A DNA stretch of 64,000 nt from Tubulanus polymorphus (GCF_964204645.1 NC_134028.1:13439263-13503262), one strand, 5' to 3'. Positions 3,850 through 45,785 are shown, numbered from the stretch's first letter. Translations and numbers: made by a program. The notes: generated from the letters alone by a model not told the origin.

Positions 3850-3855
3850 TCTATT

Positions 3856-4245
3856 TTAATCCATTAATAATAATTTAGATTTAGTTTCAATGGCTTTATG
3901 ATTTGACTTATCTTCTGGTATGATAGGTTTACTGTCTGTACACGGATAACTAAGTTTCCGATTGTCATTGGAATCATCTTTATCATTAGATTTGAATTTT
4001 GATTTATATATTACACCGGATAATATAATAACTGTTACTAATCCAATTGTAATATATAATTTATAATTACTTCCAGCATTAGAAGAATCAGGTGGATTAT
4101 TATTTGAATCAATATCAGATAATTCATTTATGTCAGTTAATTTCTTTTTCTTAGCTTTTTTTAATTCTGAAGATCTTTTACCTAATTCTCTTGCCCATTT
4201 AATTTGTTTCTCGGATCTAGCCTTTTTCTTAACTCCATCACTCAT
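3856..4245 (-). CDS. Small Polinton protein with basic N-terminus and a single TM helix
   Basis: Hydrophobic LYITIGLVTVIILSGVIY segment; homologs at 34921..35289 and 16265..16660. Confidence 0.75.
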   Translation of the reverse strand: MSDGVKKKARSEKQIKWARELGKRSSELKKAKKKKLTDINELSDIDSNNNPPDSSNAGSNYKLYITIGLVTVIILSGVIYKSKFKSNDKDDSNDNRKLSYPCTDSKPIIPEDKSNHKAIETKSKLLLMD

Positions 4246-4846
4246 TTATTTTAGTTAATTTTTGTTCTGATTCATTTTCTGTTTCGACGTCTGGTTGTAG
4301 TACATCTGTTTCGTTCTTACCTGATTTATATTCCATAGGTTTGATGTTCGAAAATGTTATGACGCCAGTAGAAATTAATGTCATTACCGATCCTAGTTGA
4401 AATGAAGCATATCCAACCCATTTTTGTAATTCAGTCATAACTAAGTAGTCATTTTTCAAATCACTATATAATTTATTTTCATCATCAATTGGTATTAACT
4501 GGTTACATAACTTAGAATAACATTTGACAATACCATTCGAAATAGAATCATTTATTTTAGCTAATCTTGCCTCTTCATAAATCTTAAAATATTTTATTAC
4601 TTTATCTGGTTTCATAGCATCTAATTCTTGAAAAGTTATAATTTTTCCCAAGAAATCCTTAGATTTCCCTCCAGCAATCAATAGTTCAAGATGATGCTTA
4701 CAATATAAATAGTATTCATAATCTATATTACAATTAACTTGAATATTATTTTCAATTTTGGCCGGAATATCCTTATTATCGCTAATGCCCAAATCATCTA
4801 ATGTCTTTTCAATATCAATACTATTCTTATTAGATTTCTTTGACAT
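4238..4846 (-). CDS. Conserved hypothetical Polinton protein
   Basis: Intact 202-aa ORF with homologs in copies B and C and a TAAATG start. Confidence 0.75.
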   Translation of the reverse strand: MSKKSNKNSIDIEKTLDDLGISDNKDIPAKIENNIQVNCNIDYEYYLYCKHHLELLIAGGKSKDFLGKIITFQELDAMKPDKVIKYFKIYEEARLAKINDSISNGIVKCYSKLCNQLIPIDDENKLYSDLKNDYLVMTELQKWVGYASFQLGSVMTLISTGVITFSNIKPMEYKSGKNETDVLQPDVETENESEQKLTKINE

Positions 4847-5094
4847 TTATATTAGAGAAAAAAAGCAAAAAAAATATTATAAGTATTATAAAATGATACT
4901 AGCTTGTTAAAACTAAAGAATTCTCGTATTGACTACTGATACTAGCTATTTGAACTTAAAGAATTTCTATTTGAATCTATTCAAAATATAAAGTATTCTC
5001 TTTTTAAAAAGAAAGTATTAAAAAAACAATAACTAATACTAGCTAGTTGAAGATATGTAATTTTTAATACTTTTTATTTAAATTCTATTATTCT

Positions 5095-5763
5095 TTAACC
5101 ACTCATTAAAGACTCAACATATTGTTCATTATTTGGATTATTGTTCCATTGATCAATAAATTTCTTTGCCTTTGTTAACTGTTCTAAATATAACTGTAAA
5201 TCTAGTTTATTAGATTTAATTATGTTTTCCTTCTTTTCTAAAGGTCTTAAATTCTTCCAATTCCAAATAAGTTTTTTATTGTATTCATCATTCATGTTAA
5301 ATTTAGATATTGGTAACACGTGATCAATATGGTAATAATCCCCATAATTATCTATATTTATTTTATCATCGAATTGATATATTATCCATGATTTTAAGAA
5401 TTCATCTGAGCAACCCAATAAATTAGATAGTGTTTCTGAATGTGTTTCTTTGTTGAATAATTGTGTTAATCTAGTCCTTAAGCATTGTTTCAATCTAAAA
5501 TTAAGATCTGTTTTATATTTTTCTCTCATATATTCTGCCATATAATAATTATAATGTTCTATATTATCTTCTCGGTATTGTTTGGTATATAGTTTAAAAC
5601 AAGTTTTACAGCAATATTGAAAACCATCTTTGCTAATCTTACGCTTACTAAATTCTGTTGAAGCTAATTTATCTAATTCACATTTAGAACACTTCTTGTA
5701 GTATATGTTTATAACGCCAGTGTTATTTGTAATATTGATAATTTGTGGTTGTTCTGGTTCCAT
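5095..5763 (-). CDS. HNH endonuclease with N-terminal Zn ribbon (phage/giant-virus type)
   Basis: KKCSKC...CCKTC, HIDHVLPISKF and NLRPLEKKENIIKSNK motifs. Confidence 0.8.
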   Translation of the reverse strand: MEPEQPQIINITNNTGVINIYYKKCSKCELDKLASTEFSKRKISKDGFQYCCKTCFKLYTKQYREDNIEHYNYYMAEYMREKYKTDLNFRLKQCLRTRLTQLFNKETHSETLSNLLGCSDEFLKSWIIYQFDDKINIDNYGDYYHIDHVLPISKFNMNDEYNKKLIWNWKNLRPLEKKENIIKSNKLDLQLYLEQLTKAKKFIDQWNNNPNNEQYVESLMSG

Positions 5764-6779
5764 TTATTATACGTATTTTTTTACTAAATTGGTTAATATT
5801 TTAGAATCCTCTTCCATTTCTTCGACCAACGTCATCCTTTTTCATTCCTCGCTGCTTTTGATAAGTTGTTTCGATTCCCTGATATCTAAATAATACCAGT
5901 GGGTAAAAGCGCGTATTCGTGCGCGGTTTTGCTTAATGCGCATGCGTTAATCATAATTATATATTCATTCTATAAATTCTGTAAAATAGAAACAACCGAA
6001 CACAGAAAATATCAAAACGTGTTCGCATTAGGCAAACCGCGCATTCATGCGCGCTTTTGCTTAACGCGCATGCGCTAATTATAATTGAAACGAATCATTA
6101 TTGAAACGACTGAACATAAAAATTCACCAAGTAGATTTACACAATACATATACAAGTATGTTCAGTCGTTTCTTCCAATACATCATTTGATTTCTATAAA
6201 TACAATTTATAATTACAAACATTTTTTCAATTGCTGGTAAATATTTAATTATATCAACAAATGTTAAACTTAATCATTGGAGTCTTAATGTTTTTGAAAT
6301 TCTTATATAGTTTCTTCGTCGATCTTTTGGTGATTCTATTGGTTTAATATCCATTGCTGTTGATTCCTCAGTCAGAAAGAGTATCTTGAGTTTCTCTATC
6401 ACTTCTTGATGCGTATGGCGTTTTATTAATCTAAAAGATATTAGCGGCAACTCTAGCCATCTAAAAGATATACTAAATACACTTAAATATATCTAAAGGT
6501 TTCATATTTAATAGCCCTAATAACTACAACAAACAGTACTTACATTTAGATTTATAATTGTAAACTATAAACTCCTAATTTCGTTTCGAAAGATAGAATA
6601 TCCTGAGCACAATGTTACGGCGTATGTTCATTTCTTGCCACGTCATCTGGTTCCGGTTCTAGAGTGTTCTCTGCACGTTTGCAATAATGATTCATAAGTC
6701 TCGGCGTCATAGTAACAGCTGTAACAGCTGTGAATTTATAGATTTATTCCATAGCTCTGTACATTGAATGTATATAGGT

Positions 6780-7031
6780 TCAAATAGAATCATGTTCTAG
6801 TAAAAATATCGGATCCTTGATATCAAATTCCTCAACGTATTGTTCATTATTTGGATCATTATTCCATAATTCAATAAATTTCTTTGCCTTTGTTAACTGT
6901 TCTGAATATAACTGTAAATATTCTAGTTTCAATTTATTCTCTAAATGTGTTTTAGTTTTATTGTGTCTTGCTTTTTGGGATTTATCTATATTGATTTTAC
7001 ATGTTGGACAGTAGTACTTATTTGCTTCCAT
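6780..7031 (-). pseudogene. Deletion chimera: pPolB N-terminal Zn finger joined to an HNH gene tail
   Basis: The first 38 aa are nearly identical to 48111+ (MEANKYYC). The rest matches the C-terminus of 5095..5763 (LQLY.EQLTKAKKF). Confidence 0.8.
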
Positions 7032-7079
7032 TTTAATAATAAAATTTTTATTAAAATTGATTTTAAAAGTTCAATGATT

Positions 7080-7515
7080 TAAATGTTATTCATTTATATG
7101 AATATTTTAAGAGTAATAGGGGTAATGGGCTTTCGGGTTAAAGGTTGAATGGTCGAGTTCATTAAAAACAAATATTAAAAGTAATTTAAAACTATAATAT
7201 ATTTTCATAACCGTGTGTATTTCAGTTGAATAATAGAATAATTATTATTATTTGAATATATTTGATTATATGAATTTGTGTATTGTAAATAAATCAATTG
7301 GTCGCGGAGCGGAGCGGTAGCGAAGTGGAGCGACCAATTGATTTAATACAATATGCTTTTTAAATTATTGATATCTTAGTATAAATATTTAGTTATAATA
7401 TAAAATGCACACGGTTATGAAAATATATTATAGTTTTTAATTACTTTTAATGTTTTGTTTTTTAATGAGCTCGACCGTTCGACCTTTGATCTGAAAGCCC
7501 ATTACCCCTATTACT
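7080..7515. repeat. Terminal inverted repeat of copy A; 7112-7515 is itself a palindrome
   Basis: AGTAATAGGGGTAATGGGCTTTC at 7112 with its reverse complement ending at 7515. It matches 32761-33142 in inverted orientation and 46090-46425 directly. Confidence 0.9.
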
Positions 7516-13043: not shown

Positions 13044-13049
13044 TCTATA

Positions 13050-15441: not shown

Positions 15442-15778
15442 AGTAATTAGAAGATGGCGTTTTCAGATCAGAGTACTAGAGTACTAGACACCACTCATCA
15501 CAGCTAGGCTCTAGTGAGAACGGACGATTGCTCTGTGACACACATATACAGTGAGTGCGCGTAACAACAACTGCGCGTGGATAGATCGATACAGTGAGTC
15601 TCTACTGAGAACGGTTATTAACGCGTGTGTTATTACTGTAGTACAGTGATTGCGTGTCAACTGTGCCCAGATAAATAGATGCTGTGAGGCTTGGGTGAGA
15701 ACGGTTAATAGCGTGTTTGTTATATACAGGGGGAAGTAATCCCCACTCATCACCACAAGTAATTTGTTTTCCTTATAA

Positions 15779-16104
15779 ATGGGAGATAGAAAAACATTCT
15801 TAGCAACAATAAATAACAGAATTAAACCAGCAAAAAACAATTTGAAATAAAAAAGTTAGTTGATGTTACAAAAGAAATTGAACATAAAATATTGAAATTA
15901 GAAAAGATAAAAACTAAATATGGAGAGAAAGTATCAGCGAATTTAAGCTACTGTAATGTTAGTACATCGCGAGAATTTAAAGTATTTTTACCTGATAAAT
16001 GGGTTTCATTGAGTACAGAGGAATTAAAAGATTTAGAAGGATTTAAAATAATCTATCATGGAAAAAATGAAGATGGCCATCATGATTTAGAAATTGTTGA
16101 TTAA
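15779..16104 (+). pseudogene. Small Polinton protein (KYG...FLP motif; possibly OB-fold ssDNA-binding)
   Basis: Homologous to 45403..45756. The TAAATG start at 15779 is followed by a premature stop. The OB-fold call is inference. Confidence 0.6.
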
Positions 16105-16264
16105 ATTTAAAAAAAATAAATTAATAAAAATAATGAATATCTGGAATCCGAAATGACTTATCTGGACAATTTAATTGCTCCGCATAGATTGACAAAAGTA
16201 GTGAGATGGTGCTGTATGGCACCCACATTGTGATATTCAATTAATATTCAATTAATTAAAAAAA

Positions 16265-16660
16265 TTATTTTTTTTGCTTTTTTTCTAAAATATTCATCCA
16301 TTTTTTTATTGTCATTTTTGGAATTTCAGAATTATTTTTATTTTTGATAGCAGTTGTTTCAGAATTATTAATATCATGAATTTTATTTGATTTCTTATAC
16401 CAATTACACCCAATCAAAATGAATGCAATTACAAATCCAACTGTAAAATATAAATATTTATCAAATATTCTATTATCAGAAAGAGTAGAAATAACAATAT
16501 TTTCACCATTTTTATTAACATTTTTATTACTTATTTTTTCTTTTACAGCTTTTTTATATTCTTGTGATTTAATTCCTAATTGCCGAGACCATTCAATTTG
16601 TTTCTGTGATCTCGGTTTTTTCTTCACAGTTAAATCCTTCACTTCTTCCACCTCGCTCAT
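16265..16660 (-). CDS. Single-TM basic protein (homolog of 3856..4245)
   Basis: KKKPRSQKQIEWSRQLG motif plus a hydrophobic helix. Confidence 0.7.
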   Translation of the reverse strand: MSEVEEVKDLTVKKKPRSQKQIEWSRQLGIKSQEYKKAVKEKISNKNVNKNGENIVISTLSDNRIFDKYLYFTVGFVIAFILIGCNWYKKSNKIHDINNSETTAIKNKNNSEIPKMTIKKWMNILEKKQKK

Positions 16661-16663
16661 TTA

Positions 16664-17197
16664 TTATAGAAAAATTTTTACTTTAATATTTGAAAATGTT
16701 ATAACCCCAGTTGATAATAATGTCATAAATCCACCTAAGTGAAATGATAAATATCCAATCCATTTATTTAATTCGGTCATAACTAAATAATCATTTTTTA
16801 AATCGGAATATAATCTATTTTCATCTTCAATTGGTAGTATAAAATTACATAATTTACTATAACCTTTTACTACATTTTCTGATATCGCGTCATTAATTCT
16901 AGCTGTTCTCGAGGCTTCATAAGTCTTAAATAATCTAATAATTTCATCTGATTTCATTGTATCTTATTCATTATAAGTTAAATTTTTACCGACAAAATTT
17001 TTACATTTTCCAGATGCTATTAATATTTCTAATTGATGTTTACAGTAAAGTTAATATTCATAATTATTATTTGTTGTAACATTATTTAAAGCACCATCAT
17101 CTGGAATTAATTTGTTTTCTGTTATTCCTAAATCATCTAAAGTTTTTTCAATTGGAACATCACCTTTTTTAGATTTTATTTTCTTTCCACCTACCAT
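16664..17197 (-). pseudogene. Homolog of 4238..4846, interrupted by stops
   Basis: LYSDLKNDYLVMTEL is shared; TAAATG start at 17197. Confidence 0.7.
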
Positions 17198-17227
17198 TTA
17201 TATAACAAAAAAATTAGTTGTGATGTT

Positions 17228-17500
17228 GCAACTAGAATTCAACTAGAACGTAACTAGAATTCAACTAGATTAACAAGCTAGTTGAAATATTGTTGTTTTT
17301 GTTTATATCTTGTTAAATCTAGTTGATTTTTGTTTCAACTACTAACAACTAGAATTCAACTAGAATGTAACTAGAATTAAACTAGATTAACAAGCTAGTT
17401 AAAATATTGTTAAATCTAGTTGATTTTTGTTCCAACTACCAATAACTAGAATTCAACTAGAACGTAACTAGAATTCAACTAGATTAACAAGCTAGTTGAA
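17228..17500 (+). repeat. Intergenic nested repeats (11-bp AACTAGAATTC subunits in three larger blocks)
   Basis: AACTAGAATTCAACTAGAACGTAACTAGAATTCAACTAGATTAACAAGCTAGTT occurs at ~17230, ~17347 and ~17443. Confidence 0.85.
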
Positions 17501-17501
17501 T

Positions 17502-18108
17502 TTAAATAAATTCATATTTAAATGGGTGTTGTAATCTAAATAGTAATTTTGATCTTTTAATATTTTTCAACTTATCCATATATTCATTATGTAAATCATG
17601 TGGAATAATATCATTTTCCTCAAGTGCATTTTTCATCGATTTTCTATCTTTATTGTAGAATAAAACTAGAAATCTAATGTTTTCTCTAAAGTCTTTAACA
17701 ATTGAATTATATTTTTGATTTAAAACCCAAGTTGTTATCCCAAAATGTCTACCAGAAAAAGCTAAATAACATAACTCACTCTCTCTAACTTTTGAATCAT
17801 GTAGATTAGCACAATCATCTATAATGAATAATGTATTTGATCCTTTAAATATCTATTGCTATTTTAATACAATTATCTAAATTTTCTTTTACTGTTTTAG
17901 GATCTAATATAATAAATTTATTATTTCTAGTAATATTTCTATCATAAGTTTGATTAAATTCATATGTTGGACAAAATAATACCATATTATCAAAATAGTT
18001 TTTATAAACAGTTTCTAATAAATTTAATATAAAATAAGTTTTTCCACAATTTGTTACACCAGAAATTAACATATTATGAAGCTCAAATATGAATAATTCC
18101 TTATTCAT
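17502..18108 (-). pseudogene. Packaging ATPase, copy B (premature stop at 17845)
   Basis: GVTNCGKT motif; downstream DNA matches the ATPase of copy A. Confidence 0.85.
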
Positions 18109-19223
18109 TTATATATTTTTAATTTTACTTGATAATATCCATTCATTGAATTTATCTGGCCATCCAACCCATTTTACTAAAGAATATTTTTTTCTTTTAA
18201 TAGTTTTTGTTTTTAATATTTTTTCAATTTTATATTCTTGTTCTAGATTTTCAGTAGTTAAACTCAATTCTTCTTCGTAAAAGTAGCCATCAACTTCTTC
18301 ACCATCTAAATCTTCTAATTTATAGACATATGGTTTTGTTGTTATTACCTTTTTTATTTTATATATTTCCCTAGTAAAATTTCGATCGTATCCTTTGTCA
18401 AATATCTTTTTATACTTAGAAATTCTAACATTTTGACCAACTTTAGGTTCACCAAAATCATCTCCAAGAAATGCTCCATATAAATAATTCCAAACAATTT
18501 CAGCATTTTCAGGTTTTCTAGCATCAATAGGTTTCATTCCAATAGAAGAATGATAAGAATTATTATATCCTTCTATCAATTTTGGTAAAACATCAATCCA
18601 TTTAAAAGTATTATTTGCTGTAAAATATTTCCACATTCTTGTTCTTAATGTTCTATTAAACAACTGCTGCTTTTTTATCCGATTTTGTTGAAAAATATTT
18701 AATATTATGATTATCTAAGAGTTCATGAACAAGTGAATTATCAAACTCTTTTCCATCATCAAATTGTATTTTTTTCTGGTTTTAGTTTATCATCCGAAAG
18801 AAATTTTCTTAAAACATTTGATGTTTGTACAGCATCTTTTCTATAAAGTGGGAAGCTCCATACATAACGACTAAAAATATCAATTATATTCAATAACCAC
18901 CAATAATCATCATTATCTTTCTTAACATTTTTCATATCAATTAAATCTCCTTGCCACTGTTGATCTACATAACTTACCATAGTTTTACGAGTTTTATATT
19001 TTCTAACAATTTTTTTATGTGTTGTGTATGTTGGTTGTTCTAACATAAATTCATTTATATCTTTATATTTAACTAAATTTTGTGGGATAATCTTATCTAA
19101 TCTATCTTGTTTTACTTGACGCCATATATTTTTAGTAGAAGAATAAGCAACCGAACTCTCAGGGTTGTAATATAAATTTCCTAAATATTGTTCTTTAGTA
19201 TTAGGAGTTTTTTTACCACCCAT
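18109..19223 (-). pseudogene. RVE integrase plus chromodomain, copy B (frameshifted, divergent allele)
   Basis: WQGDLIDM, IDIFSRY, FNRTLRTRMW and VKWVGWPDKFNEWI motifs. Confidence 0.9.
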
Positions 19224-19253
19224 TTATATATCCTTAATTTTAACTTTATATTT

Positions 19254-20504: not shown

Positions 20505-20524
20505 TTATTTAACAAAAAAATTAA

Positions 20525-21954: not shown

Positions 21955-21977
21955 TTATATATTAAAGAAATTAAAAT

Positions 21978-23345: not shown

Positions 23346-23373
23346 TTATTTAATTAAAAAATTAATAATTTAT

Positions 23374-23796
23374 TTATTCTTTTAATAATTTATCTTGTTC
23401 TTCAACTGTGATATGACCATTTAAACTTATTATATAATCTAATGTATTCTTTAATTTATTAATTTCTTTAATATTAGTTTTAATTTTTTCTTGATTACTT
23501 TTTATATTTAATTTTGAACTTATACCAGTTAAAACACTTGAACTTAATCCTAATACACCAATTGATATAGCTAAAGGTGTTAATGGACTGAATATTGCTA
23601 GAAATGTTATTACAGAACTAATTGTAACCGAACCACTGATAATAAGATAATATATAATTTTACTTTTTAAATATTTTTTCTTTTTCATCTTTAAGTCACT
23701 TTCAAATTCTAATATTTGTTTTTCTAAATATATTTTTAATTTAGTTTTATTTATATCATGAGGAATAATATCAATACTATCAACTTTATCTTCCAT
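23374..23796 (-). CDS. Two-TM-helix protein
   Basis: Two adjacent hydrophobic helices; near-identical to 43135..43569. Confidence 0.75.
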   Translation of the reverse strand: MEDKVDSIDIIPHDINKTKLKIYLEKQILEFESDLKMKKKKYLKSKIIYYLIISGSVTISSVITFLAIFSPLTPLAISIGVLGLSSSVLTGISSKLNIKSNQEKIKTNIKEINKLKNTLDYIISLNGHITVEEQDKLLKE

Positions 23797-23816
23797 TTAT
23801 TTAGAAAAAAAAATTA

Positions 23817-29770: not shown

Positions 29771-29857
29771 TTATTGGGAAAAAAAATTACTTGTGGTGAT
29801 GAGTGGTGTTTCGCCCGCTCCCCGCTGATCTGAAAGCCCACTTTCCCAATTACTACT

Positions 29858-32760: not shown

Positions 32761-33142
32761 AGTAATAGGGGTAATGGGCTTTCAGGCCAAAGGTCGAACG
32801 GTCGAGCTCATTAAAAAACAAAACATTAAAAGTAATTTAAAACTATAATATATTTTCATAACCGTGTGTATTTCATAACCGTTGGTCGCTCCACTTCGCT
32901 GCCGCTCCGCTCCGCGACCAATTGATTTATTTGCAATACACAAATTCATATAATCAAATATATTCAAATAATAATACTTATTCTATTATTCAACTGAAAT
33001 ACACACGGTTATGAAAATATATTATAGTTTTAAATTACTTTTAATATTTGTTTTTAATGAACTCGACCATTCAACCTTTAACCTGAAAGCCCATTACCCC
33101 TATTACTCTTAAAATATTCATGTAAATGAATAACATTTAAAT
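32761..33142. repeat. Left TIR of copy C (palindromic 32761-33107)
   Basis: Inverted copy of 7080-7515 with a small internal deletion. Confidence 0.9.
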
Positions 33143-33197
33143 TCACAGATTATTCAATATAAAAGTGTAAGCTCTTATAGAATAGATATATAGATAG

Positions 33198-33809
33198 TTA
33201 TTTTATAAATTTATATTCATATGGAAATTGTAGTCTCAGTAATAATTTTGAACCTTTATTATTCTTTAATTTATTCATATATTCATCATGTAATTCAGTT
33301 GGTATAATTTGATTTTCTTCCAATGATTGTTGCATAGATTTTTTATCTTTGTTATAAAATAAAACTAGGAATCTTATATTCTCCCTAAAGTCTTTAACAA
33401 TTGAATTATATTTTTGATTTAAAACCCATGTTGTTATCCCAAAATGTCTCCCAGAGAAAGCTTAATAACATAACTCACTTTCTCTCACTTTTGAATCATG
33501 TAAATTTGCGCAATCATCTATAATGAATAATGTATTTGATCCTTAATAAGTATCAATTGCTATTTTAATACAATTATCTAAATTTTCTTTTACTGTTTTA
33601 GGATTTAATATAATAAACTTTTTTATCTTAACTATATCTCTATTATATGTTTTATTCATTTCATAAGTAGGACAGAATAATATTATATTATCAAAATGAT
33701 TCTTATAAATAGTTTCTAACAAATCTAATATGAAATGTGTTTTACCACAATTGGTTACACCAGTAACTAACATATTATGCGGTTCGAATATGAATAAATC
33801 TTTATTCAT
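33198..33809 (-). pseudogene. Packaging ATPase, copy C (premature stops)
   Basis: Near-identical to 2133..2744. Confidence 0.88.
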
Positions 33810-34914
33810 TTATTCTTTTAATTTTACTAGATAAAATCCATTCATTGAATTTATCATCATATCCTTTATATTTCACCAAATAATACTTTTTTCCTTTAAG
33901 AGTTTTTGTTTTCAATACTTTTTCTATTTAATATTCTATTTCTTCTGGATTTGGCACAAGTGATAATTCTTGTTCATAGAAATAACCTAATATTTCTTCA
34001 TCTTTTAGATCTTCTAATTTATAAACAAAAGGTTTAGTTAATATTATCTTTTTAATCTTGAATATTTCTTCAGTAAAATTTGGGGTATAACCTTTATAAA
34101 ATGTTTTTCGATATTTAGATATTCTTACGTGTTGTCCTATTTTAAATTTAGGTTCTCCGAAATCATGCGTAACAAACGCACCATATAAATTATTCCAAAC
34201 TATTTCCGAATTATCTTCTTTTCTAGCTTGTATAGGTTTCATATTTATAGAACTATGTTTAGAATTATTATAACCTTTCACTAAATCATCTAATACATCG
34301 ATATATTTATATGTTTCATTAGCAGTAAAATATTTCCACATTCTAGTTTTCAATGTTTTATTAAATCTTTCTATAATAGATGCTTTTTTATCTGAGTGTG
34401 TTGAAAAATAATCTACATCGTTATCAGATAATAGTTTTTTAAAATGTTTGTTATAGAATTCCTTACCTTCATCAAATTGTATCTTATCTGGAATAGCTTC
34501 TTTAAATATATTCTTAAAAGCATTTGTTACTTCTATGCCAGTTTTATTTTTGATTGGAATTGACCATGCGTATCTACTGAATATGTCTATAACATTTAAT
34601 ATCCAGAAATATCCTTTGTTGTATTCTTCTAAGTTCTTCATGTCAATTAAATCTGCTTGCCATTGTTGATCAATATATGAAACCATAACTTTTCTTGTTA
34701 AATAAGTTTTATCCATTTTCTTGTGGATTTGATATGTTGGTTGATTTTGTAACCATGATTTTAATTCACTATATTTTATATCACCATGTGGGTGCCGTAT
34801 GGCACCATTTTCATTATCAGATTTAATTTTACCCCATAATTCTGTAACGTTAGAATATGATACTTCACTTTCTGGGTTATAATATAAATCTCTTAAATAT
34901 TGTTCTTTTTCCAT
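33802..34914 (-). pseudogene. RVE integrase, copy C (stop at 33928 removes the chromodomain)
   Basis: Near-identical to 2737..3849; the DDE core is intact. Confidence 0.9.
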
Positions 34915-34920
34915 CTTATT

Positions 34921-35289
34921 CTAATCCATTAATAATAATTTAGATTTAGTTTCAATAGCTTTATGATTTGACTTATTTTCTGGTATAATAGGTTTATTAT
35001 CATTGGAATCATCTTTATCATCAGATTTGAATTTTGATTTATATATTACACCGGATAATATAATAATTGTGATTAACCCAATTGTAATATATAAGTAATT
35101 ATTTCTTCCACTATTAGAAGAATCAGATGGATTATTACTTGAATCAATATCAGATAAAGTCTGTGATTCATTTATATCAGTTGATTTCTTTTTCTTAGCT
35201 TTTTTTAACTCTGAAGATCTTTTACCTAATTCTCTTGCCCATTTAATTTGTTTTTCAGATCTAGCCTTTTTCTTAACGCTATCACTCAT
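34921..35289 (-). CDS. Single-TM basic protein
   Basis: Homolog of 3856..4245. Confidence 0.75.
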   Translation of the reverse strand: MSDSVKKKARSEKQIKWARELGKRSSELKKAKKKKSTDINESQTLSDIDSSNNPSDSSNSGRNNYLYITIGLITIIILSGVIYKSKFKSDDKDDSNDNKPIIPENKSNHKAIETKSKLLLMD

Positions 35290-35888
35290 TTATTTTAGTT
35301 AATTTTTGTTCTGATTCATTTTCTGTTTCGACGTTTGGTTGTAGTACAGCGTCATCTGTTTCGTTCTTACCTGATTTATATTCCATAGGTTTGATGTTCG
35401 AAAATGTTATGACGCCAGTAGAAATTAATGTCATAACCGATCCTAATTGAAATGAAGCATAGCCGACCCACTTTGTAATTCAGTCATAACTAAATAGTCA
35501 TTTTCAAATCACTATATAATTTATTTTCATCATTAATTGTCATTAACCGGTTACATAATTTTGAATAACATTTTATAATACTATCTGAAATAGAATCATT
35601 TATTCGAGCCAATCTAGCTCCTTCATAAATCTTAAAATATTTTATTACTTTATCTGGTTTCATAGCATCTAATTCTTGAAAAGTAATTATTTTCCCGATA
35701 AACTGATTACATTTCCCACCAGCAATTAATAATTCTAGATGGTGTTTACAATATAAATAGTATTCATAATCAATATCACAATTAATATTATTTTCAATTT
35801 TGATTGGAATATCCTTATTATCACTAATGCATAAATCATCTAATGTTTTTTCAATGTTGGTATTATTCTTATTAGATTTCTTTGACAT
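35282..35888 (-). pseudogene. Homolog of 4238..4846, frameshifted
   Basis: Collinear DNA similarity. Confidence 0.75.
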
Positions 35889-36999
35889 TTATATTAGAGA
35901 AAAAAGCAAGAAAAATATTATAAATATTCTTCAAATGATACTAGCTAGTTAAAGCTAAAGAATTTCTATTTGAATCTATTCAAAATATAAAGTATTCTCT
36001 TTTGAAAAGAAAGTTTTAAAAATATAATAGAATTCACTAGCTAGTTGAAGTTAGTTTTTTAAATACTTTTTATTTAAATTAGGATTTAGATTATCTCACT
36101 ACTATTGTTTATCTATTAGGAGCAGTAATTATAACTGTCCAGATAAGTCATTTCGGATTCTCGATAAATAAATCCTAAAACTGAAAATAAATTCAAAGAA
36201 ACGACTGGTGGAAATACTATTTCATAAACACACATATATTTTATTCTACAATCATTATCGATTTCCACATTCCAAGCCGCTCAACTCAGGCCCGGTAAGT
36301 TATGCGTGGAATGCAGGAATCAATAAAATACAATACAACATCTGTCACTGTGTGTCATTAACAACAGCTTAATGACGCAATTGAAATTCCGACAAACGTA
36401 ATGCATTGAAAGCCTATACAGTATGGCTAAACTGCTACAGTCTCATGAGTTGAAATATCCATTATTTCTGATTCCACGTCCATATATCTTCACTTTCTTG
36501 ATTCAATGGTCTTCATTTTGTTATCTAAAAGATAAATATCTAGCGTAGAATAAAACTAACTTGAAGTTGTAGTTGTAAAATATTAATTACAGCACTTAAA
36601 CATAGCCATTCGTGGCGCATCTTTGTCCGATAAGTTTTACATGTTTAGCGTTTCCCAACGCCTTAATAACAACAAAAACAGTACTTACATTTATAACTGT
36701 AAAATTGTGTTTATAGAGAGAATATCCTATACGTTCCTATGCTTATGTGCTGCGCGCTTATAACTGCCAGTTATTCACTAGCTAAACACTGTCTGATACA
36801 ACATATGTTCCTTCCTTTGTAATATAATTGATTAATCCTTTTCAACTGCAATAGAACATTCGATCGATATTCAAATGAGATACACCCTATTCAACTGAAT
36901 ATAACGTGCGACAGATGCTTTTGTAAACAACCTAATACAATTACATACAGGCGGTTTGACATAGATCGAGAGTAACCGGTTTTCTAAGCGGTTAACATT

Positions 37000-37615
37000 C
37001 AACGTATTTTTCATTATGTGTTGAATTCCATCATTCAACAAATGTCTTTGCTTTATCCAGTTGATCTAAATATAATTTCATATCTAGTTTATTAGATTTA
37101 AAGGTCTTAAATTTTTCCAGCTCCATATTAGCTTCTTATTATAATCATCATTCATGTTAAATTTAGAAATCGGCAACACATGATCAATATGAAAGTATTC
37201 ACCATAATTATCTATATTCATTTTATCATCGAATTGATATATTATCCATGATATGAAAAATTCATCTGAACAGATTAGATAGTGTTTCTGAATGTGTTTC
37301 TTTGTTGAATAATTGTGTTAATCTAGATCTTAAGCATTGTTTCAATCTAAAATTAAGATCTGTTTGATATCTTTCTCTCATATATTCTGCCATATAATAA
37401 TTATAATGTTCTATATTATCTTCTCGATATCGTTTGGTATATAGTTTAAAAGAAGTTTTACAGCAATATTGAAAACCATCTTTGCTAATCTTACGCTTAC
37501 TAAATTCTGTTAAAGCTAATTTATCTAATTCAAATTTAGAACACTTCTTGTAGTATATATTTATGACACCAGTGTTATTTGTAATATTGATAGTTTGTGG
37601 TTGTTCTGGTTCCAT
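37000..37615 (-). pseudogene. HNH endonuclease, copy C, frameshifted
   Basis: ORF 37262..37615 is near-identical to the N-terminus of 5095..5763. The HIDHVLP motif is readable near 37180. Confidence 0.8.
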
Positions 37616-37784
37616 TTATTATACATTTATTATTTTTTTACTAAATTGATTTTAGAAGTTATTCATTTATATGTTATTCATGAATATATATGAATTATTT
37701 CAATAAAACTTTACTAACACTTTTAATGTTTAAAAATCTAACTCATACAAATATAAATATTGAAATATGTTTAAAATATACCTA

Positions 37785-38145
37785 TGTATTAGATACCCTA
37801 TTAGATACCATATTAGATACCCTAATACCTGATACCCTATTAGATACCTTAATTACTTAAAATCCCCTTTTTAAAAATAAATATTATTTATACAATTTTC
37901 AACCAATTTATTTTTATTTTTTAACTAATATATGAATTAGTTTGAAAATAATAAAGGTTATTTATTATTACTGAGGTTTCAATATAATTTAAGTTATTTT
38001 CAAATAATATGTATTAAATACGTATTAGATATGTATTAAATACGTATTAGATATGTATTAGATACGTATTAGATATGTATTTGATACCTTAATACTTAAA
38101 ACCCCCTTTTTTATTTACTATTATTTTATACAATTTTCAACCTTT
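37785..38145. repeat. Intergenic GTATTAGATAC-type short tandem repeats in two related blocks
   Basis: 11-bp units at 37785-37850 and 38030-38090; inverted counterpart of 1560-1670. Confidence 0.8.
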
Positions 38146-38160
38146 ATTACTTTTTGAGTG

Positions 38161-39069
38161 TTAGATAATCACTTTCTGAATCACTTTCATCATCACTCTC
38201 CTCCAATTCATCATCACACACTTATTCTTCACCCTTTTTACCGTATCTTCATAAATAATTGGTTTATTGATATACTTATTAGTCATCTCAACTATATCTT
38301 TATTTTCTGATTTAAGTTTCATAGAATCTTTATTATCAATGCGCTTTCCTGTAACTATATCACCATGTGGGTGCCATACAGCACCATTTTCATTATTATC
38401 TTTATTAGTGTTTGCTCCTAATATTTCATTTACAGTGTTTGATTCTAATATTTTATTAGCATCGGTTAAATCTAATTCATCTTTATTAGGTGTTGCTAAT
38501 AATAAATCTTTATATAATTCTTTACCATTTACTTTTTGATTTGAAACAAACTTTGTAACATATCTAAATGGGTGTTCTATAAATTCTTTTAAACCAACAC
38601 GTTTTATAACATTAGTAATATGTGAATTTGTATTCATATGATTATTCCAATTTGATGGAGCGTTTGAAAATTCGCCTTTACAATAATCACAATAATTTCT
38701 ATTTTCACTAACATTTAATATTATTTCATTATTAGATGTAGAAGGTATTACATTATTAGATGTAGAAGGTATTACATTATTAGATGTAGAAGGTATTACA
38801 TTATTAGATGTAGAAGGTATTACATTATTAGATGTAGAAGGTATTACATTATTAGATGTAGAAGGTATTACATTATTATCAATTACATTACTTAAATTAT
38901 CAACAACACCACTTTTATTATTATCGATTTCTATTAGTTTAGTTTTATAAATTTTGAAAATAGGATCAAATATCAAAGCTATATTACAAGGTATTACATA
39001 ATATAAACCATCATTATTTTCATGTGTATCGATGTATGGAATATGTTTATATACTTTACCTCCTTCCAT
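38161..39069 (-). CDS. Hypothetical Zn-finger protein with a 24-bp tandem repeat (VIPSTSNN x6)
   Basis: Open 302-aa ORF; repeat at ~38730-38880. Confidence 0.75.
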   Translation of the reverse strand: MEGGKVYKHIPYIDTHENNDGLYYVIPCNIALIFDPIFKIYKTKLIEIDNNKSGVVDNLSNVIDNNVIPSTSNNVIPSTSNNVIPSTSNNVIPSTSNNVIPSTSNNVIPSTSNNEIILNVSENRNYCDYCKGEFSNAPSNWNNHMNTNSHITNVIKRVGLKEFIEHPFRYVTKFVSNQKVNGKELYKDLLLATPNKDELDLTDANKILESNTVNEILGANTNKDNNENGAVWHPHGDIVTGKRIDNKDSMKLKSENKDIVEMTNKYINKPIIYEDTVKRVKNKCVMMNWRRVMMKVIQKVII

Positions 39070-39101
39070 TTATTATATAAATTTTTATTAAAGTTAAAAT
39101 T

Positions 39102-40349
39102 TTAATACATAACACTATTCAATTGAGAATTTACAATATTTAATTGCGCGTCAGATATAATATAAATATGCATTTTGAAATTTAGGCTTCCTTTTTTCTT
39201 TGTCATGAATAATTGTATTCCATCTTTAGTGTTCTGTAGTTTTTTTCCAGAACCATGTAATGAATTATCCTCTGTTGTTCTAAAATCTAACCATAATGCA
39301 TATTTATTGCCGGTATAATAATCAATTTGATTAATATTACAATTTTCAAATGATTTTACTTTTTCATTCATAAAATGTTTTCTAATTTCTGGCCACTGAT
39401 CTATCAATCTCATTCCTTGACAAAATATTTTATTTGCTATTCCTTCGATAGTTATTTCTACTTTTGTTATTTCAGGATTATAATAATTATCAACCTTTAT
39501 TGCGCCATTAGAATATGTTGCAATGGTAAAAAATATTAATGTACCTTTAATAGATCTTCTTGGGAAGTTAATATTCTCATTAATAATTTCATCATTTGCA
39601 TTAATAGTTACAGTTTTAAATTTATCAATATAATCATATAATAATGAAAATCCTTGATTGTATTGAGTTTGAATTATACTTGAAATATTTTCATCAGTTA
39701 CTGTGTCATATTCTAAACATATATTCGATAATTTATAACTCATATCTTTATCAACGCTAGATATTACAATTTCATTTACAGGAGCAAATGTTATTTCGAA
39801 TATAACGTCTTCTTAAATTACGTATTTATATAAAGGTGCATTGTTATTTATCAATTCAAAGTCTAATGGAATTTTATATTTGATTCCATATATACTTTTT
39901 ATCAATTTATCTACAGCATTAGTTAATATTGCGCTATTAGCTTCTGATCTTAATTTATTTTGGTTTTCTGATTGGATTCCTTGAAATATCATATTATTTC
40001 TATTTTCTTTAGTTAACCATAAATTTTTATAATGCATAAATAAATTATAATCATCTAATGAGAAAACAGTTTCTGGACCAATCTTTATAGTTAATTTTTT
40101 AATCAAATATCTCCCAACATTATCAACAACATAATTATTATTATTACCGGTTACTTTTATATCGACTGATAAATAAATACTATTTGGAACATAAAAAGTA
40201 TTTTGTGTAAATCGAGGAATTCTAACATATAAAGTTTCATCGGGATTAATATTAGAAGGGTTATGAGTAATTATATGATGTGATCTTTCTGCTTTAATAG
40301 CATTAGATATTCTATGATTTTTCGAAGGATTGATATAACTCCCACTCAT
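39102..40349 (-). pseudogene. Major capsid protein, copy C (stop at 39813)
   Basis: Two in-frame ORFs homologous to 19254..20504. Confidence 0.78.
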
Positions 40350-40369
40350 TTATTTAACAAAAAAATTAA

Positions 40370-41801
40370 TTATTTATTTTTTATCATGTTTACTAATCCA
40401 AAAATAATAGCACTTACAACTGTAATTAAAAATAAAATAATATGTTCAGCAGCAAAGTTAATAATGTTTCCTGCAGATTTCAATATAAACCAACAATTGA
40501 TGCAATAATTCCTGGTAATGCTGCAGCAGATTTTTTAGATAGTTCCCATAAATATTTTGCTAATTTCTTTAAACCATCCTTAACTTTATCTTGTATAGAA
40601 TTATTATCTGGGGGTTTATCTGGTTTATTTCGAGTAGGAGTAGATTTTAAAGCATTTGATATTGCTAAACCAATTGTTGTAAATAGCATAGTTACAGCTG
40701 TTAGAATTGAAAGAATTGTTATTCCTTCTAATTTAAATAATAACTTTATTCTATCTTTTAATGATTTTTTAGAATCTGGTTTAATCAACAAATCTTTAAA
40801 AACAACTTTTAATCTATTAATATTATAATCATATGATTTTAATAATAATTTAATTTCTTCTTTTTGTAATTCTATGTTATATTCTAAATCATCTTTTTCT
40901 TTTTCTAAATACGCATTTCTTTTTTTAAATTCGATTTCTTCAATAACTTTATTATCTCTATCTAATTTTAAAGTTCTAATTTTTAAATCTCTTATACTTT
41001 TATCATGCGCAATTTTATCAGCTTCATTTCTTATACTAATAATTTCTCTAATTGCTTTATCGGAAAGTATATTATTTAAATCTTCTAATTGTTGATCTGT
41101 TGCATCAAGTAATCCATTTGGTAAAAGTTTTTCAATTGGAACTTTATTTGATTTCAGTTTACTAGCTTTGGAAGTTATATTCTGTTCAGAGTTTCTTTCT
41201 GGTTCTAAATTATTATCGATTGTTTCAAATAATTTATTAATTCTTTGTTTAAATACTCTTTCATTTTTAATAATTTCTTCTTGTGTTACATCTTCTGGTT
41301 CATTACTATTTCTTATTCTTTTAATTCTAGATAGGTCTAACTTAAGCAAAGTTGATTCTGCTAATATTTTTTCTTGTTTTTTATAAGAGATATCAATATA
41401 ATAATCATCTTTCGAACGATAATAATATTCACCATCTAAAAACTTTAATTCTTGTACTAAAAGTCTAGCGCCTCTGTCATTTATATTATATCCAGATTTT
41501 TCAAATATAGGTTTGAAAATTATAAATTTTTAGGTTTTAAATTATAAATATATTCATTATATTCTAAATTTTGTTTTACTAAATCTGGATTTTCATTTTC
41601 AGGAGGTATTCTCGACCTAGTTCTTCTATCAAATTCATCTGTTGATGGGGCTTTAGAACCACTATCTGCTAAATTAGAATTATATGCTGATTCATTACCA
41701 TCATCAATATTAGTTTCTGCATCATTATAATCATCATCAATATATCCTTCATTATTATTTCCCATGCCTTCCATTTCATAATCTTCTCCACCTTCTGCCA
41801 T
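40370..41801 (-). pseudogene. Acidic / coiled-coil / membrane protein, copy C, frameshifted
   Basis: Homologous to 20525..21954. Confidence 0.7.
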
Positions 41802-41822
41802 TTACTTAATAAAAAATTAAAA

Positions 41823-43118
41823 TTAAAAATATAATATTCCTCCGATTACAATTCCTATACAAGTTAAAGCTAATTTAGTATTTTCATGGGATTTATTATC
41901 ATCATTTAGTTTAATTATATCATGTTGAATATTATCAGTTTTAATATTTTCTGATGTATTGTAATCTTTTATTTTAGAATCATTATTTAATTTAATATTA
42001 TTAGTTTTAGTTTCAGTTGATTGAATGTGTTTTTTATTTTTTTCACCTTCCATTAATTTTGGAGCAGTGATAATCTTTTTATTTATATCATTCAATCCAA
42101 ATGAATTATTTATTGTTGCAGTTTTAATTAGATTATTATAACCAATTATATTTCCCATCTTTAATACTAAATCATTAGAAATAATAAATAGATTAGGGCC
42201 TATACAATAATTTAATGTAATATGTGATTTATCTAAATAATTTTGATATCTTACAATGTTTTCTGGAATCGATCTATTTTTATCATTATGAATTAAATCT
42301 TCAAATAATACTTTAAATTGTTTCTGCGCATCGAATGAAGTGTTATCATTTCCAATTATTGGTGATCTTGTTTCAACTTGCGCACCTAGAATACATATCA
42401 AATAACTTCTAATAGATTGATTTATTCTTTGTATACCTGATTTTGTAAAACCTTCACCATTTTCTAAAATGAAATTAACCCAACCATTATTATTATCAAT
42501 TTTATAATTATGATAAGCTCCAATTCTATGAATATAATCAATTCTTTTTATTTCATACTCTTCACCAACACCTTGCAATTTACCATGCGCTCTAAAATCG
42601 GAATTAATATTTATATTAAATTCATTACATATTTTATAAAACTTAGATAGATTAATATTATTATCCAATTCTTTAAAATATTTAGACCCGGGTGAAGGAC
42701 ATTCTAATTAATTTAATATTATTCTGATTTGAAAATATGTGTGAAATCTAAATATTGTGTGAATTAATTTTAAATCAGAATACTTCAAATTTTTATCTAA
42801 GTTATTTAAATGATCATTCCAACTAATTCCACATCCTGTTGTTGCACAATAAACAGCAAAATTTCATTGATTCTGCCAATATTTCATATTAGATTTTACT
42901 TTATATATATGGTATTCATCTCGAGTAAAAGTAACTTCATATGTATTAAATATATTTTCCATTTTAGAAATAAAAAACTGTGATTCAGTAACATAAATTT
43001 CTAAATTAGTTAATGAATTTAAAACTACATTTCTATATGTAATATTTTTCTTAAAATCTATTGTAGGAATATTATATTTAATTGATTTATTATATTGGAA
43101 AGCTTTTGGAAACCCCAT
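41823..43118 (-). pseudogene. Conserved Polinton protein with C-terminal TM helix, copy C
   Basis: ORFs 42864..43118 and 41823..42668; C-terminal LALTCIGIVIGGILYF. Confidence 0.7.
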
Positions 43119-43134
43119 TTATATAATTAAAAAA

Positions 43135-43569
43135 TTAATAATTAACTAATTCTTTTAATAATTTATCTTGTTCTTCAACTGTTATATGACCATTTAAACT
43201 TATTATATAATCTAGTGTATTCTTCAATTTATTAATTTCTTTTATATTAGTTTTAATTTTTTCTTTATTACTTTTTATATTTAATTTTGAACTTATACCA
43301 GTTAAAACACTTGAACTTAATCCTAATACACCAATTGATATAGCTAAAGGTGTTAATGGACTGAATATTGCTAGAAATGTTATTACAGAACTAATTGTAA
43401 CCGAACCACTTATAATCAAATAATATATAATTTTAGATTTTAAATATTTTTTCTTTTTAACTTTTAAGTCACTTTCAAATTCTAATATTTGTTTTTCTAA
43501 ATATGTTTTTAATTTAGTTTTATTTATATCATGAGGAATAATATCAATATTATCAACTTTATCTTCCAT
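43135..43569 (-). CDS. Two-TM-helix protein
   Basis: Intact 144-aa ORF with two hydrophobic helices. Confidence 0.78.
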   Translation of the reverse strand: MEDKVDNIDIIPHDINKTKLKTYLEKQILEFESDLKVKKKKYLKSKIIYYLIISGSVTISSVITFLAIFSPLTPLAISIGVLGLSSSVLTGISSKLNIKSNKEKIKTNIKEINKLKNTLDYIISLNGHITVEEQDKLLKELVNY

Positions 43570-43589
43570 TTATTTAGCAAAAAAAATTA

Positions 43590-44012
43590 CTAATTAGTAA
43601 ATTTATATGCTACAAATATTACAATAACAGTTCCACCTAAAATCCATATTATTTCATATTTCTGTTGTTCTTTACTCGGGGTATAATGATCTGATATTGT
43701 AGGTTTATGTAGATGTAATTTTTCTTTATTTGTTACCGCGTTATATAAACTCATTGCATCATCAACTGATTGAAAATCTCTATGTGAAATCTTCTGATCA
43801 TTTAATTCTTTATTGATGTAATCCATATAGTTTTGTCGTTTTTCTCTATATTCTTCCGCTGCTTTATTATATTTCTCTAATGCTAAGTTATGTCTTTTTT
43901 GTTCTGTTAATGAACCATTTTTATCAATATGCTTGAATAAATAACCACCACCAGTAAATGCTAAAGCGTTAACAATTGCCGATCCTATAATAGTTATAAT
44001 TGCAGAAGCCAT
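43590..44012 (-). CDS. Small protein with hydrophobic N- and C-terminal helices
   Basis: MASAIITIIGSAIVNALAFTGGGYLF...IIWILGGTVIVIFVAY. Confidence 0.78.
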   Translation of the reverse strand: MASAIITIIGSAIVNALAFTGGGYLFKHIDKNGSLTEQKRHNLALEKYNKAAEEYREKRQNYMDYINKELNDQKISHRDFQSVDDAMSLYNAVTNKEKLHLHKPTISDHYTPSKEQQKYEIIWILGGTVIVIFVAYKFTN

Positions 44013-44036
44013 TTATTTAGCAAAATAATTACGCAT

Positions 44037-44258
44037 TTATATGGGAGGAATATATTTTTGTTTTTCCAAATAATCAATAGTTAAATTAGATAAAGTAACT
44101 GCTAACGTTAATTTTAAAATATCATTGATATCAAATCTATCAACATTAACACTTCCCATTTTAAATACTTTTTTTAATACCATTGAATAACCAACAGTTC
44201 CAACTGATAGTAATGCGCCATTATATAATCCAGTTATTATCCACTTATTATCACTCAT
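44037..44258 (-). CDS. Small hydrophobic protein
   Basis: 73 aa, TAAATG start, two hydrophobic or amphipathic segments. Confidence 0.65.
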   Translation of the reverse strand: MSDNKWIITGLYNGALLSVGTVGYSMVLKKVFKMGSVNVDRFDINDILKLTLAVTLSNLTIDYLEKQKYIPPI

Positions 44259-44615
44259 TTATTTATCAAAAAAATTACTATCATCAAAATATTTAGTTAT
44301 CTTATTTATGATTAATTCAACATTTATTTCATTACTAGTTTCATTTGTATATATTTCAATTATTATTTTTTTAATATCATCGATGATAAAATCTTCATCT
44401 AATTCATAAAATCTTAAAGATTCTCTAATTAAATTAGTAATCTTTTCTACATTTAAAGTTTCTTTATCTATTGTTGTTTCATACTCAAATGTTGTTTCAT
44501 TAGAAAATGTAATATTTTTGATATGTGTAATTACATCAGTAATGTTAAATTTCATTTCTTTCTCATGTTTAAAATCAAACCCAAAACATATACTCGGCCC
44601 AACAGTTATATTCAT
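44259..44615 (-). CDS. Hypothetical protein
   Basis: 118-aa ORF with a TAAATG start, packed within the gene block. Confidence 0.6.
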   Translation of the reverse strand: MNITVGPSICFGFDFKHEKEMKFNITDVITHIKNITFSNETTFEYETTIDKETLNVEKITNLIRESLRFYELDEDFIIDDIKKIIIEIYTNETSNEINVELIINKITKYFDDSNFFDK

Positions 44616-44630
44616 TTATATAGTGAAAAA

Positions 44631-45385
44631 TTACTCTTTACATCTTATAACTAATTCATATATCACAGGAAAGTTATTCAAATCAATTAAATAACCATTA
44701 TGATTTCTTATTTCTAATTTAAAATTATTGAAATGTGGAATACAAGGTTTGAAATCACATTCTGTTAAATTATAATTTATTTGAGTTCCAAATTGTTTAA
44801 CATTTTTTAACGGTAAAATATTTAGTATACTAGAACTACAAATTGTTTCTTTAGTTGCTTCGAAAGTTTTTGTAGGCTCGATTAAATTGCAATAAATATA
44901 AAAGTGTGTAAAAGGTAATATATTTGGCGTAGTATCAACATTTGAATAAATTCATTTGGATTAACTCCTAGCATTTTAGCTAATGGTTTTCTTACTATGA
45001 ATTTATATTGTTCATTAGTTAACTTTATTCTTATTTTATTAGTACTATTGATTTTATTAAATTTAATGTTAAACCCAACAGATTCACCCACTTTTAACCG
45101 AGCTCTTCTATTAATTTCTTGTGCTAATGTATCTAAATTGTATAATCCTGGTCTTAGAAATAGATGATATTATTTATCCATATTTCTATCATGAATCATA
45201 AACAATCTATGATCAAAACTTTTATCCGATATATTATAAAAAGAATTACATAAACTTATATTAACTAATTTTAAATCTACACAATTCTTAAATTCTCTAT
45301 CTAATTGTACAAGTAAATTATGAGATTTATAACTAGTAAGTTTTCTTGAATCAACAAATATTCTGTATTCCTTTAATTCCGCCAT
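44631..45385 (-). pseudogene. Minor capsid protein (penton, single jelly-roll), fragmented
   Basis: IFVDSR, SFYNIS, RPGLYNLDTL, YIYCNLIE and EIRNHNGYLIDLNNFPVIYEL, a pattern typical of Polinton/PLV minor capsid proteins. Confidence 0.75.
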
Positions 45386-45402
45386 TTATTTTACATATTT
45401 TC

Positions 45403-45756: not shown

Positions 45757-45785
45757 TTTAATAACATATTTTTATTAAAATTTGA

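Follow-up and report, generated by a model that had tools for sequence, protein, structure and literature searches.

A poxvirus-like TAAATG signal at the gene starts of decayed Polinton copies

Results

Four decayed Polinton copies in the window

We analyzed a 64,000-nucleotide stretch of DNA from Tubulanus polymorphus (GCF_964204645.1 NC_134028.1:13439263-13503262; this whole stretch is called the window below) and the sequence TAAATG found at the gene starts of the Polinton/Maverick-type elements in it. Four decayed copies of such elements (A, B, C, and fragment D; Table 1) stand out as AT-rich segments with 22-26% GC, and copies A, B, and C are 74-91% identical to each other in DNA. Because every copy is broken, these are relics and not active elements. 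The gene labels g3-g11 and MEGGK were coined for this analysis; "SSB-like" is a label that we presume to fit from the appearance of the sequence, with no database match behind it.

Pfam analysis identified a protein-primed family B polymerase (pPolB; PF03175, E 1e-18), an rve integrase with a chromodomain (PF00665, E 1e-8), and an A32 ATPase (PF04665, E 4e-12). The major capsid protein (MCP) pieces of the window are 54-55% identical to a relative, P0001, with a predicted double jelly-roll fold (E 6e-14). The penton assignment is of low confidence, as it comes from a model with a predicted local distance difference test (pLDDT) score of 42 that matches minor capsid proteins (E 3e-8). Copy C ends in AGT...ACT, and its flanks, AATATA and AATATT, match at 5/6 positions, which is likely a target-site duplication. 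The set of pPolB, rve integrase, A32 ATPase, capsid and penton proteins, terminal inverted repeats of the AG...CT type, and the likely target-site duplication of copy C is that of a Maverick/Polinton in the broad sense. No protease family was present in a Pfam scan of 35 + 27 + 23 proteins, although the gene could have diverged or been deleted; the scanned proteins therefore do not show the adenain-type cysteine protease that defines Group 1 Mavericks or adintoviruses in the strict sense. No RNA polymerase (or subunit of one) or capping enzyme was present among the open reading frames (ORFs) scanned, several genes of which have no assignment in elements of which no complete intact copy has been seen. 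The g8 product of copy B has a weak SLATT match, and an ESM Atlas query with g7 returned no match. The genes without an assignment are g3, g4, g6, g7, g9-g11, and MEGGK.

TAAATG marks gene starts of every class

A first-pass annotation of this DNA had listed 19 ATGs preceded by TAA and proposed that they are vaccinia-like late promoters of structural and packaging genes, most with an upstream T run. All 19 read TAAATG, on the minus strand. In the 22 nucleotides (nt) before the TAA, a run of at least five T residues is present at 12/19 of these starts and one of at least four at 14/19; the T run is missing at both listed ATPase starts and at 4245, 19223, and 45385. Where present, the runs mostly end 5-8 nt before the TAA. 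The TAA is the stop codon of the previous gene at only two of the 19 sites (18108 and 44258), and at 16660 the previous gene's stop directly precedes the TAA. Overlap with the previous gene does not explain the pattern, in agreement with that annotation. The exceptions named in that annotation are also real: the integrase starts at 3849 (copy A) and 34914 (copy C), and the penton start of copy B at 24279, which reads TAAATAATG.

The restriction to structural and packaging genes was wrong, because ten further TAAATG sites exist (726, 15779, and 24348 on the plus strand; 5763, 29770, 33809, 35289, 35888, 37615, and 39069 on the minus strand). The polymerase, endonuclease, VLTF3-like, and, in copy B, integrase genes carry TAAATG too.

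In a motif-blind test, the first ATG of each ORF of at least 100 aa in the element segments was picked without reference to the motif. TAA precedes this ATG in 19/37 such ORFs vs 66/972 ORFs of <40 aa (Fisher p 1e-13 vs other ATGs), and with one vote per gene family the count is 13/17 (binomial p 1e-12). Since the copies are homologous, the 19 listed sites amount to about 13 independent observations. When 35 window starts were defined by homology to intact relatives, TAAATG was present at 29/35, TAAA(T/A) was found within 3 nt at 33/35, and each of the 17 gene families had the motif in one or more copies. Of these starts, two (15779 and 29770) were spotted through the motif and then assigned to genes by peptide likeness, so the motif-blind result is the unbiased figure. 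The association of TAAATG with gene starts is real, strong, and conserved.

A phased T- or A-rich core lies upstream of the motif

The consensus over 80 starts from the window and its relatives is T(-19) A A W W W T T(-12), a loose spacer, and A W A T A A ATG G, with the motif in a fixed position on the ATG. In comparison with the other TAAATG sequences in the elements, TAAATG starts are preceded more often by T5 (14/29 vs 3/70), by T6-N7-9-YAAAW (11/29 vs 0/70), and by an A-rich core (12/29 vs 8/70). T-run cores occur at the capsid gene and its neighbors g4 and g6-g11; AATAAAA-type cores occur at polB (copies A and D), the SSB-like gene (copy C), and the VLTF3-like, HNH, MEGGK, and ATPase genes. 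Where promoters lie back to back, what reads as a T run for one gene reads as an A run for its partner, and this, too, can yield both classes. A reading of the T run as part of a splice acceptor was rejected, as no AG follows it.

An 11-bp box, CC(A/G)CTCATCAC, is present at 15743, 24302, and 29806 (and also at 15491), with copies in each of the two end repeats of copy B and in the divergent spacer between its penton and VLTF3-like genes; it is possibly a binding site.

The motif is conserved in four lineages of relatives

An alignment of the capsid protein led to 23 metagenomic loci, of which 17 were counted; L007 and L013 (near copies of L006 and L012) and L020-L023 (decayed 28-33% fragments without starts) had been left out before the counts. 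TAAATG is present at 46/55 long ORFs in 13 loci (null 74/1215) and at 0/12 in the four others, or at 46/67 over all 17. The motif-positive loci form four lineages, each with 100/100 support, one of which includes the window copies; the motif-negative loci all fall in a single lineage apart from these, for which the tree includes only L015. The motif is retained in relatives with 40-44% GC, and T occupies position -3 in 48 of the 55 relative starts. Divergent gene pairs only 19-30 bp apart have TAAATG on both sides in L004, L005, L006, L011, L012, and L013. As a control, three AT-rich giant-virus-like loci (L024, L026, and L029) have TAAATG at 1/22 starts. No relatives were found in the viral contigs, prokaryote genomes, or phage records searched. 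One capsid relative, P0027, is labeled in its source as a Bartonella protein and is probably host DNA within a bacterial assembly.

The sister lineage (L015, L016, L018, and L019; 100/100) has the same genes without TAAATG. In it, TATA lies <=12 nt from the ATG at 7/8 starts vs 46/358 ATGs (p 7e-6, a post hoc comparison in which two rows are one gene family). The late initiator of African swine fever virus is TA(+1)TA (PMC7163114).

Copy B carries a broken VLTF3-like gene

One broken gene of copy B, with its pieces spread across frames, has zinc fingers, a zinc ribbon, and a VLTF3-like late transcription factor domain. It is colinear with an intact 697-aa relative, P0133, whose start matches L008:11054. 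The C-terminal part has a Pox_VLTF3 match in Pfam (E 9e-5, below the cut-off). In the ESM Atlas, the VLTF3-like part scores 0.93 with 198-200/256 features, and the ten best named matches are all to VLTF3 or A2L families. A HMMER search for relatives gave one true relative, and a word search gave no shorter ones. VLTF3 genes are already known in some Polintons (PMC11131425). At L008:10343-10981 (minus strand), a deoxynucleoside kinase gene (PF01712, E 2e-31) with a T-run TAAATG start is divergent from the VLTF3-like gene.

Other features of the window

Copies A and C have an end repeat (7112-7515, 32761-33107, and 46089-46425) that forms an imperfect palindrome of 400 bp, in which AGT...ACT stands at each end. 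The repeat folds as a single long hairpin (-121.8 kcal/mol, z -20); a hairpin end, a resolved junction, and a doubled terminus are all possible interpretations. The pPolB of copy B (25661-27091, minus strand) contains an intein with a LAGLIDADG domain just ahead of the catalytic TD motif (PF14890 and PF14528), and the pPolB of fragment D is without this insert. In copy A, the ATPase 3' end is tandemly duplicated (453 bp, 1428-2350) next to short 15/27-bp repeats that recur near 37790. Host-type repeats at 30858-32162, 62192-63796, and 55928-61098 comprise a long terminal repeat retrotransposon piece (reverse transcriptase and RNase H), a reverse transcriptase ORF, and a 31-bp satellite (~150-170 copies).

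Table 1. Element copies, the VLTF3-like gene, and gene starts in the window
Feature	Position	Strand	Description
Polinton copy A	1..7515		left part beyond window edge; MCP remnant, MEGGK gene, ATPase, integrase, g3, g4, HNH, polB 5' remnant, terminal palindrome
Polinton copy B	15730..29857		left end eroded, boundary approximate; most genes broken; SSB-like, g3, g4, ATPase, integrase, MCP, g6-g9, penton remnant, VLTF3-like, intein-bearing pPolB
Polinton copy C	32761..46425	-	most of polB deleted
Polinton fragment D	47825..51509	+	SSB-like remnant and broken pPolB, endonuclease VII insert
VLTF3-like gene, copy B	24348..25664	+	single broken gene, pieces across frames
MEGGK gene, copy A	704..728	+	TAAATG, A-rich core
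A32 ATPase, copy A	2742..2766	-	TAAATG, A-rich core within integrase 3' end
integrase, copy A	3847..3871	-	exception, without TAAATG; likewise 34914 in copy C
g3, copy A	4243..4267	-	TAAATG, without T run
g4, copy A	4844..4868	-	TAAATG and T run
HNH / endonuclease VII gene, copy A	5761..5785	-	TAAATG, A-rich core
polB N terminus, copy A	7029..7053	-	variant TAAAATG, A-rich core
SSB-like gene, copy B left end repeat	15757..15781	+	TAAATG, interrupted T run
g3, copy B	16658..16682	-	TAAATG, A run then T run
g4, copy B	17195..17219	-	TAAATG and T run
ATPase, copy B	18106..18130	-	TAAATG, A-rich core; TAA doubles as integrase stop
integrase, copy B	19221..19245	-	TAAATG, without T run
major capsid protein, copy B	20502..20526	-	TAAATG and T7 run
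g6, copy B	21952..21976	-	TAAATG, interrupted T run
g7, copy B	23343..23367	-	TAAATG and T run
g8, copy B	23794..23818	-	TAAATG and T run
penton / VLTF3-like divergent spacer, copy B	24277..24350		68 bp
penton side of 68-bp spacer		-	TAAATAATG with T run
VLTF3-like side of 68-bp spacer		+	TAAATG, A-rich core
likely polB start, copy B right end repeat	29768..29792	-	TAAATG and T run
ATPase, copy C	33807..33831	-	TAAATG, A-rich core
g3, copy C	35287..35311	-	TAAATG
g4, copy C	35886..35910	-	TAAATG and T run
HNH, copy C	37613..37637	-	TAAATG, A-rich core
MEGGK gene, copy C	39067..39091	-	TAAATG, A-rich core
major capsid protein, copy C	40347..40371	-	TAAATG and T7 run
g6, copy C	41799..41823	-	TAAATG and T run
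g7, copy C	43116..43140	-	TAAATG and T run
g8, copy C	43567..43591	-	TAAATG and T run
g9, copy C	44010..44034	-	TAAATG, interrupted T run
g10, copy C	44256..44280	-	TAAATG and T run; TAA doubles as g11 stop
g11, copy C	44613..44637	-	TAAATG and T run
penton, copy C	45383..45407	-	TAAATG, A-rich upstream
SSB-like gene, copy C	45754..45778	-	variant TAAAATG, A-rich core
polB, fragment D	48089..48113	+	variant TAAAATG, A-rich core

Discussion

A probable promoter that a helper virus polymerase would read

We consider it probable that TAAATG and its T- or A-rich core are a poxvirus-type post-replicative initiator that was read, in a virophage-like manner, by the RNA polymerase of a helper virus. 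At late and most intermediate poxvirus genes, TAAAT lies over the ATG and serves as the template on which slippage produces a poly(A) head (PMC4542343), and late cores have T residues 5-7 bp upstream (PMC5294985). The match to vaccinia late promoters drawn in the first-pass annotation thus stands for the TAAAT over the ATG and the T-rich core, which are kept in four lineages of relatives. It does not stand as a late or structural class, as the initiator is found in all gene classes, no T tract precedes the packaging ATPase, and the core is A-rich at about half of the starts. That interpretation is likely right in outline, with promoter activity predicted.

In the mechanism that we propose, a helper's poxvirus-type RNA polymerase would read the element promoters, and intact elements would replicate as its virophage-like parasites. 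Transcription would occur in the helper's cytoplasmic factory once the element DNA is released, and would begin inside the AAA of TAAAT. Host ribosomes initiate poorly with T at -3; slippage of the polymerase would add a 5' poly(A) leader that replaces this T and renders the leaderless start translatable. The element's VLTF3-like protein could bias or supplement the helper's late factors. All gene classes would need the initiator because a naked satellite genome can use only the trans-acting post-replicative machinery of its helper. A parasite of such a polymerase is the simplest explanation, because the signal is on every gene, the scanned ORFs include no polymerase of the element's own, and there is no room for leaders.

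Several points weigh against this reading. Promoter activity, start site, leader, helper, and compartment are all predictions from sequence. No helper virus was identified for the host. When viral contigs were scanned for the promoter pattern, the 7 loci returned were chance matches in phages or giant-virus-like contigs, with no poxvirus and no Polinton among them, and were kept as controls. The literature searched yielded no work on poxvirus-like viruses of molluscs or cnidarians. Four contig sets compared with copies C and D gave only short <90% pieces on element genes, and such contigs cannot reveal 5' ends. The motif-positive and motif-negative groups of relatives were drawn after the motif had been seen, and the negative group is a single lineage. 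The VLTF3-like domain is weak by Pfam, with its one match below the cut-off and none to Pox_VLTF3 in the intact, whole P0133, and its Atlas neighbors are Preplasmiviricota and generic Nucleocytoviricota rather than poxvirus A2. The fold of the P0001 capsid is nearest to the PBCV-1 and iridovirus type and is silent on any poxvirus link.

Signatures of cytoplasmic transcription scored in coding strands (AATAAA, splice donors, and TTTTTNT) speak neither for nor against this reading. By codon shuffling, the observed/expected ratio (O/E) for AATAAA is 0.87 (121 counts) in the motif lineage vs 0.58 (9 counts) in the small sister lineage. TTTTTNT has an O/E of 0.37, yet A6 (0.67) and A7 (0.41) are low too, so that homopolymers of both kinds are depleted. 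Finally, the motif points to a type of polymerase and not to the Poxviridae, because yeast virus-like elements use TAAAN initiators as well; instead of a true poxvirus, the helper could be some unsampled source of a polymerase of this type.

The two core classes resemble late and intermediate poxvirus promoters, the A-rich cores having been compared with the intermediate poxvirus core consensus. A two-stage cascade is a lead only, because polB and the SSB-like gene of copy B start from T-run sites in the end repeats and the penton gene is mixed, which also counts against the promoter reading as a whole.

Alternatives

The alternative that survives best, although we regard it as unlikely, is a nuclear promoter private to the element. 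Host RNA polymerase II, recruited by the element's zinc-finger/VLTF3-like protein, would start at or near TAAAT with no helper needed, and the likeness to poxviruses would reflect shared ancestry of the factor or convergence. In its favor, the elements have an integrase and a gene for a candidate transcription factor, some other Polintons are known to carry VLTF3 (PMC11131425), and no helper was found. However, the divergent genes 19-30 bp apart leave no space for normal leaders on either side, and the VLTF3-like gene, with the motif at its own start, could not bootstrap the system alone. A start in AAA would also give a leader of 0-2 nt with T at -3, from which cap-dependent initiation would be poor without a poly(A) head.

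The lineages, GC range, divergent pairs, and triplet bias of the relatives leave little room for stop-start coupling, upstream poly(A) signals, or base bias. It is improbable that the motif is a translation signal, in which the in-frame TAA blocks read-through, or couples termination to re-initiation along long mRNAs, in an A-rich start context. Such a role would fit the frame of the TAA, the G at +4 in 55/80 starts (a sign of selection on start context), and the 2/19 sites that are true stop-start joints. Yet the triplet before the 55 relative starts is TAA in 46 cases, TGA in 1, and TAG in 0, though the same genes stop at TAA (37), TGA (8), and TAG (6), or at TGA or TAG in 14/51 cases. In addition, the motif occurs in divergent pairs without an upstream cistron, and the phased core at -19 to -12 is left unexplained.

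It is very improbable that the T run and AATAAA/TATAAA are the U-rich element and poly(A) signal of the upstream gene, or a T-run terminator, abutting the next start. The hexamer ending on the A of the ATG is indeed AATAAA in 37/71 and TATAAA in 24/71 starts, and the genes are mostly co-oriented; but ATTAAA, a common poly(A) signal variant, is found at only 2/71 starts, a poly(A) signal needs no exact phasing on an ATG, and the motif is also at divergent and terminal-repeat starts that have no upstream gene. That AT bias and copy duplication yielded the pattern by chance is a negligible prospect despite the 22-26% GC of the elements and the homology of the copies, as the background is 6-7%, the family-level p is 1e-12, the motif-blind test refutes it, and the motif persists at 40-44% GC and is missing in the 30% GC sister lineage and in 22% GC viral contigs.

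What the helper reading would mean

The expression and spread of animal Polintons have been in question for a long time. A recent preprint reports that no virions have been seen for them (bioRxiv 10.64898/2026.06.19.733378), and helper dependence was left open in an earlier account (PMC5499653). If a helper polymerase reads the initiator, its presence on all genes would name the kind of helper to seek and explain why integrated copies would be silent. We put forward tentatively, as a possibility with somewhat less than an even chance, the broader proposal that an animal Polinton lineage consists of virophages of poxvirus-type viruses, with all genes wired to the helper polymerase, a VLTF3-like factor of its own that competes, and an initiator that tags the helper. 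If this is true, the identity of the helper could be read from the initiator, the marine relatives would point to poxvirus-like viruses so far unsampled, and the sister lineage, having swapped TAAAT for TATA, would have switched to an asfarvirus-type helper. Promoter type could become a guide to the helpers of thousands of endogenous elements and to large DNA viruses of invertebrates that have yet to be seen.

Comparison with known systems

In its start signal, the element resembles vaccinia and other poxviruses, which share the TAAAT over the ATG and a T-rich core ending ~5-8 nt upstream. The spacing also resembles that of the vaccinia concatemer resolution site, which itself strongly resembles a late promoter (PMC8956199). 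Unlike a poxvirus, the element described here is a 14-kb integrating element with no RNA polymerase found, it carries the signal on every gene class, and the function of the signal is predicted.

Mavirus and Sputnik share the late promoter motif of their helper, and mavirus has a pPolB and an rve integrase and integrates (PMC6428243). Like the window copies, they are small capsid-coding elements whose gene-start motif resembles promoters of large DNA viruses of the cytoplasm. For mavirus and Sputnik the match is to Mimiviridae helpers of protists, whereas the host here, judged by its repeats, appears to be a repeat-rich eukaryote, probably an animal; no cysteine protease was found here, and the capsid assignment here goes no further than a double jelly roll.

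The occlusion bodies of entomopoxviruses contain Polinton-like viruses, which have been proposed to be poxvirus parasites (Barth et al. 2024, PMC11296320). Compared by their description, they differ from the window copies in having a protease and no rve integrase; the main text of that paper contains 0 occurrences of promoter, transcription, motif, or VLTF. The Maverick/Polinton elements with VLTF3 (those of stony corals, PMC11131425, and Polintoviricetes) share with the window copies the pPolB, rve integrase, A32 ATPase, double jelly-roll capsid, penton, terminal inverted repeats, and VLTF3-like gene, and the stony-coral paper has no promoter analysis (0 occurrences). They differ in that no protease was detected here.

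In the yeast pGKL pair, the smaller element depends on the polymerase of the larger one. Like the window copies, pGKL1/2 are protein-primed linear elements with a TAAAN initiator, and they form 5' poly(A) leaders by slippage (PMC6211774). Unlike the window copies, they have their own RNA polymerase and capping enzyme and an early-type upstream conserved sequence, and they are capsid-less and non-integrating.

The literature searched, which lacked most subscription papers, gave no report of a TAAATG or poxvirus-type promoter in Polintons. Promoter sharing with a helper is already known for protist virophages; what appears new here is a Polinton with a probable poxvirus-type initiator.

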